From Balanoglossus misakiensis (lineage: Eukaryota > Animalia > Hemichordata), in the NCBI GenBank assembly GCA_040954595.2, contig CM082581.2, positions 12,336,286 through 12,400,285 of the forward strand: DNA of 64,000 nucleotides, read 5' to 3'. The notes beneath the pieces are model-generated. The model was not told the DNA's origin, did not search any database, and worked only from the letters and a program-made list of their open reading frames with translations. The first letter of the stretch is position 1. Every line of letters starts with the position of its first letter. The position numbers were made by a program, and so were the translations under genes. Below are positions 52,292 to 55,200 of this stretch, in pieces.

Positions 52292-55200
52292 ATGTCTCGT
52301 TTCGGAAGTAGACCACCAAATACATCGCTTTACGTGCGAAATGTACCAGATGGCACAAGGTAATAATGCCACTTTCACAGTGGCTTACTTTAATCACCAT
52401 TCAGAAATGAAAATGCTGCTTTGACTGGTTATTTCTGCTCGCATTCTGTATCATGCAAGATATGACACCATTTTGTTGCCGCCATCTTGAATCCCACGAG
52501 TAAATCCACGAAATTTTGACAGTTGCCTGTTAATTTTTGTACAGCTCGCATTAAACAGGGAAAGAAAATTGCTGCCGGGAATCTACAGGGTTACTTGAGG
52601 ATGGTTTAATTGTGTATTTTTCCTAGCAAGTTTAACAAACACCTCGCCTGGCTTTGTTGCGACTGTTATCACGTGACCTACAATGTACATGTACTGACAA
52701 CGTGCAATGCAGGGCCCAATACATTGTAACTCAAAAAATGATAATGTACGTCACTGTAAGTGACAGTTCGAGATTACCAAGTACATGATGTGTATTATTT
52801 AGATTGACGTGAAAATTGTTTTGACACACAGACCAGAGGAAATGAGACAACTTTTTGGTAAATACGGCCCAATAAGCGATGTCTATGTACCGTTGGATTA
52901 TTATACAAGAAGACCCAGAGGTTTTGCATATGTACAATATCCTTCACACATCTGTCATGTTATTTATTTTTACTCTATTATTGCTAATATTTGGCATTGG
53001 GGAAAATTCACTCTTGTTTTACCGTAAAAGTTGGTCTGTCAATAAGCTCTTCATTTAATTATAGTTACATTATATTTATCTTTGCTTGAAATTCCCTTTT
53101 GAATTAGATGGCTAACAAGGTAAGTTCTTTTTAACGTGATTAATTGGGACTACTGACAAACACAACAAAATTTTGTTCTTTTTAGAAAGCAAGATGAAAG
53201 ACTAAAGATCAAACATAAGAGCAAGTCAAAGAACAAGTCAAAGTCAAGTGCAAGCGTTTTTGGTTCAAGGTCAAGCGATTTAGGCGTGAATGAAAGGCTT
53301 TGGTGGCACAAGGTGGTGTAAGCGTGCCCAGCCAAGTCGCGGTCAAAGTTCAGGGTCAAAAGAGCAAGAGTCAAGTTCAAGTGAGGTCTACCCAAAGTTC
53401 TGGTCTGTTGTAGAACAAGTTAACCCAAGCACAGCCAAAACAAAACAAAGCCAAGTTACACAGCGCGTTTGACGGGTCAAGTTTCTTCGCCATAGGGGGT
53501 TGTTACCACACAGTGAGAGTCAAGTTCAAGAGTGGTGGTCTACCCAAAGTGCTTGTCTGTCGTAGGCAAGTTACAGAGGGACATGTACAGCCAAAAATCC
53601 AAAAGAAAAGCCCAAGTTGCGCCATGGTTTTGACCGTGTCAAGTGTCTTCAGCGTAGGGGTTACAGAGTCAAGTTCAATCCTCTACATTAGGGGGTCAAT
53701 CACCGTGAACCCTCCCAACAAGAATTGGGTAACAGAGTCAAGTTCGTGGAGTAGGTTGCCACCACTGGTCAAGGGCATGGTCGATCCAGTTGTTTTGTTT
53801 GGTCCAGGAACACAAGTTGTATCTAAGAGTGGAATGAAGGAAGAACTTGCACGCACACAGTTACATGCTGCATTCAGTGGTAATATTCATACTTTTTCTT
53901 AACTGCATAAAAAATTTGCATAGAAAAAATAACAAATGTGAGCTTCAAGTTTGTAATCTATTCTACACACAAGAACTTGAATATTCAATGACCAAATATC
54001 AGCAGAGATCATAAAAAAATCAGTTCTATTGAAGGATATCACAAGTGATAAAGTTCTCTTCACACGGTGAAAAAAAACTCGGCGGTGGTGATGGAAGTAG
54101 ACATTAATGTAATCTCATAAACAAGAACACTCCTTAACTTAGCATACATTTGAAGATATCCGAGACGCTGAAGATGCCAAGTACCACCTGAACCACTATC
54201 GATTCTATGGAAGAGAGTTGGATATTCAGTTTGCCCAAGGGGACAGAAAGAGTAAGTAATATGGCTGCCTGTGGATAGCCATTTGGTGCAAATTTTTCAT
54301 GTCTTGCTGTGATGAATTTTAACAACTGATGATTGAGTAGAATCTCATTAATATTAAGCAGTGTTCTCTTTGAGGAATTTCTTACAGTGTGTTCCACAAT
54401 TTGCATGACAAAGGAGTAATTATGTTAATTAAGTTCTGTATTGCCAAAATTGGTTTTGGCCACTGTGCTTGAATTGCTCTGGGGAGACTATGGACAACAA
54501 TATCTCTTTAAAACTGAAATGCACTAGCATTTTGAAATGTTGGAAATTGTTTTCTGGTGTTCAATTTTAAAATGATGGATTATTTAATCATTCAGCACCC
54601 GGTCAGATGAGGGGCAAGGAAAGGACCAGTAGTAGGAGAGGATACTCAGACCGGTACGAGAGGAGCAGTCGCAGGTCAAGAAGCAGGAGTCCATACGACA
54701 GGAGAAGTAGAAGCAGAAGCCCTTACAGAGAGAGAGAAGGGTAAATAATATTACATATGGTAAAGTTTTACTTGCATGGCATCTACTTGGGTGGCCGTGG
54801 GCATGGCAGGTTATTAGGAAAATTAGTGGATGTGCTTACCTGTATATCTTGTGACAAAAGTGTCAAATCTTTACAGATGCAATGGTGAATGTATGTATGT
54901 TAATTATCTGCTATTTTCCCCTCAGTCGTGAAGAAAGATACAGTCGTCGCCGGTCTCGGTCCCGAAGCTATGAAAGGTAAGCCAGCATTGTTTTATTTGG
55001 ACACAGTACGTGTACATCATATTGTGTAGAGAAACTTCTTTAAATGTTGCTATGTGTCAAGTTAAGGGTACATACAGTAGTTGAAATGCACTTGCTGTTG
55101 ATGTGATCCATTCTTTACTATGTCCGCACAGCATTCTAAATTTAAGTCAAGTATTTGGGGAAAGATGTGTTGGGAATTGCTACAAAAGCAAGTGAGCGTG

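Follow-up and report, generated by a model that had tools for sequence, protein, structure and literature searches.

A candidate poison exon with a nested GT-AG intron in the AT-AC intron of an invertebrate SRSF10/12 gene, and its likely counterparts across animals

In mouse and human Srsf10, 5' splice sites of the minor and the major type that compete at exon 2 and an autoregulatory exon 3 have been described (Meinke et al. 2020, PMC7244321; Neumann et al. 2020, PMC7726792; available sections of both), and the mammalian switch sets the level of SRSF10 and, through SRSF10, that of other SR proteins (PMC7244321, same sections). The poison isoform of mammalian Srsf10 is cold-induced (PMC7726792, in the part available). 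Of the minor introns that have a regulatory task, this mammalian one offers the best example; on the question of whether minor introns persist by function or neutrally, the accessible part of PMC10639083 argues for neutrality and calls SRSF10 the most compelling functional case. None of the words vertebrate, invertebrate, evolution or zebrafish appears in the main text of PMC7244321, and no description of the SRSF10 arrangement in invertebrates was found in a literature search that covered titles and selected passages of openly accessible papers.

Other described systems share single elements of this layout. SRSF5, also an SR gene, has a deeply conserved unproductive splicing event (Lareau and Brenner 2015, PMC4379411, available text); this too is a poison event retained across animals, in a different gene and without a minor intron, and the paper contains 0 occurrences of SRSF10. 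SRSF10 is also absent from the 18 genes of Table 1 in the available part of the human twintron list (PMC3564746). In Arabidopsis, the SR protein SCL33 binds four GAAG motifs in an intron of its own gene and autoregulates through them (PMC4598772, excerpts), and SCL is described as sister to SRSF10 (PMC3173450, excerpts); the SRSF10 poison exon and the GAAG-based autoregulation of plant SCL may share an origin. In Ciona savignyi, SRSF12 is reported to change upon heat from an isoform lacking the RRM to the complete one, a change that is not mapped to this intron in the available passages of PMC10573349.

The stretch of DNA analyzed here (64 kb, hereafter the window) contains an SRSF10/12 gene of 7 coding exons encoding 196 aa, with a single RRM and an RS tail. 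Its named protein matches are SRSF10/12-like and range from sponge to amphibian; 183 of the 196 residues are identical to Ptychodera flava XP_070541135. The features considered below, given as positions in the window, are the following.

52292..52359 (+): coding exon 1 of SRSF10/12, from the ATG to the first GT-AG intron, based on the P. flava protein match
52832..52936 (+): exon 2 of the gene model, 105 nt, RRM, with its 3' end at the U12 donor
52937..54147 (+): U12-type AT-AC intron, 1211 nt, with donor ATATCCTT at 52937-52944 and AC at 54146-54147
52937..53119 (+): predicted extension of exon 2, 183 nt, if the U2 donor is chosen, based on sequence and on analogy with PMC7244321
53025..53027 (+): in-frame TAA of the read-through, giving an 87-aa truncated RRM, 92 nt 5' of the nested donor
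53120..53185 (+): candidate GT-AG intron of U2 type nested in the U12 intron, 66 nt, with a donor that fits the consensus at 7/7 positions and AG at 53184-53185
53151..53157 (+): U2 branch-site motif TACTGAC
53186..53840 (+): exon-3-like non-coding CAAG/AAAG-rich block, 3' end uncertain, densest at 53186-53643
54131..54138 (+): U12 branch site, by motif, TCCTTAAC
54148..54251 (+): exon 4 of the gene model, second half of the RRM
54596..55554 (+): four RS-domain exons of the gene model (54596-54740, 54926-54976, 55262-55339, 55515-55554)
55552-55554 (+): stop TAA of the full-length protein in the gene model

A first-pass annotation had described an AT-AC intron splitting the RRM, a complete GT-AG intron nested within it and a read-through stop that truncates the RRM. 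Every coordinate of that description holds: the AT-AC intron interrupts the RRM behind the YVQ codon, and joining 52936 to 54148 restores the reading YVQ|FEDIRD. The nested intron has GTAAGT, TACTGAC and AG in place as sequence signals, and an 87-aa product was computed for the read-through. The same annotation took the genome to be non-vertebrate, in agreement with the protein tree, where the window protein joins Ptychodera (support 100/98); the gene is thus that of a hemichordate, probably a further ptychoderid. The U12 intron lies at the same codon in the window and in the mammal-like locus L085, and 63 other loci share its position. Further matches to RTATCCTT were observed in the window at 14690 and 26921 (+) and at 35442 and 7630 (-); they are probably due to chance, since no TCCTTAAC partner other than that at 54131 is found on the + strand.

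The window shares with mammalian Srsf10 the orthologous gene, the codon of the AT-AC intron, the downstream GT donor and the stop in the exon-2 extension, as well as a non-coding exon-like unit that sits inside the U12 intron and has an AAG/GA-type element close to its beginning as far as the available mammalian descriptions go. The two differ in the position of the donor (+184 in the window, ~+68 in L085), with a nested intron of only 66 nt in the window, and in the position of the stop, 92 nt before the junction in the window and <50 nt in the mammalian isoform (PMC7244321, available passages). In addition, no canonical poly(A) signal or minor donor lies at the end of the putative window exon, unlike vertebrate exon 3 as described in those passages; the window is from an invertebrate and shows no alignable sequence conservation. 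The U2-in-U12 twintron of Drosophila prospero (PMC8329584, in the part available) has the same nesting of GT-AG inside AT-AC and a purine-type enhancer nearby. Both prospero products are in-frame proteins, whereas the U2 path of the window is predicted to be unproductive and, unlike that of prospero, would leave a long exon unable to join the U12 acceptor by means of the major spliceosome. The window does not give in-frame isoforms by both paths, since a stop interrupts the extension and stops fall in every frame of the block.

The GTAAGT of the nested intron starts at 53120, 183 nt downstream of the U12 donor. Scored against the donor consensus MAG|GTRAGT, the site matches at 7/7 positions; there are 3 such sites in the 128 kb of both strands of the window, with 0.005 expected per 200 nt. 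Among the 39 GTAAGT hexamers of the window, only that at 53120 has a branch site, a pyrimidine tract and a YAG within 55-100 nt, according to a short-intron rule that was set after this site had been seen. The acceptor AG abuts the block, although it falls outside the strict acceptor rule because its pyrimidine tract has four A; on a position-weight matrix it scores 5.4, and 23% of control windows score equally high. The nested intron is short beside the other introns of the gene (175-472 nt), and RNA structure around the splice sites of the window was no better than in shuffles (z +1.05).

At the start of the block GC rises from 0.29 upstream to 0.47, and it drops at ~53840. The block reaches 14 [AC]AAG per 150 nt, where none of 100 dinucleotide shuffles went beyond 9, and is the sole stretch with at least 8 [AC]AAG per 150 nt on either strand of the 64-kb window. 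It had been characterized as purine- and CAAG-rich; its richness in CAAG/AAAG stands, whereas its purine fraction is only modestly raised (0.58). Stops are present in all its frames. The commonest AAG context is CAAGT (15/36). The SELEX motif of SRSF10, AAAGACAAA (PMC8522700, available part), has a single near-match in the window, equal to its antisense and flanks, and AGAGAV is absent from the block. No AATAAA or ATTAAA closes the block, and it is followed by no strong U2 donor or U12 donor (RTATCCY), with weak variants near 53880-53930.

In order to compare this intron with its orthologues, a degenerate pattern covering the end of exon 2 and the U12 donor was run over metagenomes and resulted in 112 loci. 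Fifteen of these were chance matches without exon 2 and were removed, and the 97 true SRSF10/12 exons were reduced to 65 non-redundant loci. Of the latter, 24 had no exon 4 in the sequence and thus incomplete introns, and were left out, yielding a set of 41 complete introns; viral contigs gave 3 chance matches and genome contigs none. The set of complete introns includes cnidarian-like, lophotrochozoan-like, fish-like and unplaced animals, with no relative from hemichordates or echinoderms among the loci. Furthermore, these loci are not independent, as two large groups of close relatives (A and B) are among them. In 65/65 sequences (window included), the distance from an AG to the U12 donor downstream was exactly 105 nt, and the complete introns were AT-AC in 36 cases, AT-AA in 3, AT-AG in 1 and GT-AG in 1. 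The introns with drifted termini were those of L007, L057 and L070, together with L056 and L040 (three AT-AA, one AT-AG, one GT-AG).

The phylogenetic tree, based on 71 columns and weak at its deep forks, placed L032 with vertebrates (100/98), L011 with Clytia (96/89), L049 and L009 with Exaiptasia (93/85) and L041 near Ruditapes, while groups A and B shared an unresolved fork with molluscs and Lingula. L007, L013, L040, L052 and L054 formed an unplaced clade, perhaps of sponges; groups A and B may be annelid. Two observations concern the reading of the exon-2 end in single sequences. In the hydrozoan-like L106 (region 94-270, upstream of the U12 donor), no intron separates exon 1 from exon 2, owing either to loss of intron 1 or to the sequence being a transcript, and the U12 donor is read through. 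In the gastropod models P0035, P0038 and P0042, spurious residues (YP...) follow YVQ, apparently because GT-AG ends were forced on an AT-AC intron.

A sense-strand AAG block was present in 40 of the 41 complete orthologous introns. Because the [AC]AAG motif was derived from the window, the other loci constitute an out-of-sample test. When 38 introns were compared with shuffles, their best stretches had 8-19 [AC]AAG per 150 nt and 37 of the 38 exceeded all 100 shuffles, the count of L072 being matched by 1/100; the flanks of these introns had a median of 3-4 and a maximum of 8. The best counts of L019 and L028 were 12 and 14, and the best antisense counts across loci ranged from 1 to 7. In L070, whose intron is 109 nt long, the count was 0 and the block is lost. 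The incomplete loci L061, L014, L008 and L048 (1-2.8 kb of sequence) had best counts of only 3-7, so that the block may be absent there. At the level of binding motifs, AAAGACAAA with up to 1 mismatch occurred in 19 introns at 1.79 per kb, compared with 0.53 on the antisense strand and 0.31 in the flanks, and AGAGAV was not enriched in the panel (0.84 vs 0.79-0.95 per kb).

An acceptor-like site no more than 25 nt before the block was found in 33/48 loci against a background of 0.114, and in 12/20 with one locus per group (P ~2e-7), under a strict acceptor rule that was written after the loci had been viewed; the position-weight score of the panel acceptors was only mildly discriminating (median 6.0 vs 4.0). 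The block was flanked by invariant acceptor and donor motifs in 9/9 loci of group A and 13/13 of group B examined. Within these groups its identity was 0.74-0.81, compared with 0.58-0.64 in the flanking intron, its lengths fell in all three phases and stops occurred in all frames. In its sequence features, this signature is that of a conserved, putatively non-coding exon. A coding reading of the block was rejected. The putative exon of group B measures 334-413 nt, close to the 356 nt of mouse exon 3 that the I3 minigene retains. In five coral-like loci the first block ends at a common GTAAGT, and in six lophotrochozoan-like loci (L036, L056, L041, L057, L016 and L006) the block is followed by RTATCCY, as mouse exon 3 is by a U12-type donor (PMC7244321, available passages). 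Overall, RTATCCY-type motifs numbered only 12 on the sense and 5 on the antisense strand.

Regarding the sequence of the block itself, no alignable similarity was found between the window and the 65 loci (best E 0.07), and a comparison of 17 panel introns revealed three short motif-level matches between lineages. Homology of the block therefore rests on position and motif, and what has been retained is likely its motif density and its place in the intron, not an alignable sequence.

Two further observations were made on the acceptor region. In the fish-like L032, which is SRSF12-type by resemblance, an AAG block lies behind an acceptor at +67 to +232 of the intron; a poison exon of SRSF12 is not mentioned in the available passages of PMC7244321 and related papers. 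In many but not all loci of group A (e.g. L030, L026, L014, L019, L076 and L104), a second acceptor-like YAG|G follows a T-rich tract at ~+60 to +70, the distance at which the block starts in other lineages.

The distribution of the nested donor was patchier. In group B, AG|GT was found at +17/+18 in 19/19 loci, most of which have a stop at +8. GTATGT was present at +54/+55 in 4/5 coral-like loci, ~63 nt before the acceptor, a spacing comparable to the 66 nt of the window intron, and GTAAGT occurred upstream of the acceptor in L013, L052, L054 and L006. No convincing U2 donor was detected between the U12 donor and the acceptor (55-69 nt) in L032, L041, L057 and L072, and no conserved nested donor in group A. 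With one locus per group, donor enrichment was weak (4 observed vs 1.1 expected, P 0.025). Among the 65 loci, the intron position of the read-through stop varied between +8 and +266. Judged from these sequences, the most conserved part is the putative acceptor with its AAG block, not the nested donor, and the donor-less loci suggest that exon 2 skipping or steric interference with U11 could act there instead of a nested intron. In L111, acceptor and block are at +62, with a weak U2 donor that gives a 45-nt intron. In group B (e.g. L074, L002 and L022), the nested donor lies within a conserved stretch (+14 to +32) in which a short hairpin, TCAGGT...ACCTGA, was noticed by eye; this hairpin might mask the donor.

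Taken together, the nested U2 intron and the AAG block probably act as a poison exon, whose unproductive RNA would compete with the productive splice made by the minor spliceosome. In the proposed mechanism, the minor spliceosome would join 52936 to 54148 and full-length protein would be made. Where the minor spliceosome is slow, U1 would take the donor at 53120, the 66-nt intron would be removed and the block would become an exon. The RNA spliced in this way, with its stop at 53025, is a predicted target of nonsense-mediated decay: its stop lies 92 nt before the junction, so that the RNA would meet the 50-55-nt rule of this pathway. It is probably SRSF10 itself that binds the many AAG-cored motifs and favours the acceptor, which would create negative feedback as in mouse/human exon 3; autoregulation by SRSF10 is proposed for the window because of the orthology of the gene and the mouse/human experiments.

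The uneven occurrence of the nested donor bears on the route by which the exon would be reached. Acceptor and block could be a real unproductive exon entered mainly from the exon-1 donor, or could work by detaining the intron, with the GT at 53120 being a lineage-specific addition; on entry from exon 1, exon 2 would be skipped, because its AT donor cannot join a U2 acceptor. Such a route would fit L032, L041, L057 and L072, where an acceptor at 55-69 nt leaves neither room nor signal for a nested intron, as well as group A with its lack of a conserved donor and the window itself, in which a join of exon 1 to the block would also stop early (67 aa). However, the window donor matches 7/7 and has branch site and tract at intron-like spacing, the donor is kept in all 19 loci of group B, and a nested donor is used in mammals (PMC7244321, available passages); this reading is considered rather unlikely. 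The binding partner of the block is a separate matter. The dominance of CAAGT in the window (15/36), which is not among published SRSF10 motifs, and the absence of AGAGAV would fit binding of the block by another splicing factor (cross-regulation), or a block that acts on the U12 intron itself as an intronic enhancer or silencer, with no autoregulation by SRSF10. Against this, the exon-like edges seen in groups A and B speak for an exon, across the panel the SELEX motif occurs ~6-fold more often than in flanks, SRSF10 acts via exon 3 in mammals (PMC7244321, same passages) and SCL33, of the plant sister family, is autoregulated via intronic GAAG motifs (PMC4598772, excerpts); a role limited to other factors or to intronic control is judged quite improbable.

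The internal structure of the block, with degenerate ~150-nt repeats and no sequence homology to the other loci, could also be that of a degenerate repeat or mobile-element remnant in which the nested splice signals arose by chance. Nevertheless, a strand-specific block occupies the same intron in 40/41 orthologues, no second copy was found in the 64-kb window, the tandem arrays of the window were limited to two tiny ones, and Rfam gave no match for the element, so that a repeat origin appears very improbable; the mobile-element reading is largely refuted by the cross-species pattern. Finally, read-through ORFs do occur in protein collections, some with exons 1 and 2 joined (P0015, P0018 and P0103), as would be the case if the alternative path made a short functional protein, either a truncated RRM or a lysine/serine-rich peptide. 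Yet the stop lies anywhere from +8 to +266 across the 65 loci, the block has stops in all frames, and mouse Srsf10-s is barely detectable (PMC7244321, available passages), leaving a functional short product with hardly any credibility.

With the poison exon as the preferred reading, the comparisons indicate that the window element would join the known mammalian switch, and that a putative poison exon is close to universal among the animal orthologues sampled. The suggestion that the switch architecture may predate vertebrates gains support from the U12 intron at the same codon as in L085 and from the wide recurrence of a predicted unproductive-exon layout; its recurrence far beyond the genome of the window supports an origin that precedes vertebrates and probably bilaterians as well. 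The putative window exon is likely a homologue of vertebrate exon 3 that was already present in the cnidarian-bilaterian ancestor, if not earlier, and the self-limiting switch, of which only mammalian cases have been described so far, likely arose in early animals. A broader proposal, advanced tentatively and with slightly less than even chances, is that the SRSF10 poison exon is an ancestral animal device (from cnidarians, possibly sponges, to vertebrates) coupling SR-protein dosage to how active the minor spliceosome is. It would consist of an acceptor and a dense AAG field without alignable sequence, reached by two routes, either through a nested U2 donor or by skipping the exon that bears the U12 donor, with U2/U12 incompatibility making the exons mutually exclusive.

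If the poison exon has been kept since before bilaterians in nearly every orthologous intron, the intron would be held by regulatory selection. A regulatory exon conserved by motif density without identity would be missed by alignment-based searches for ultraconserved poison exons.

As to the surroundings of the locus, a bromodomain gene (Pfam PF00439), which we take to be BRD8-like, lies tail-to-tail with SRSF10 at 57583-57924 (-) and continues to ~60200.
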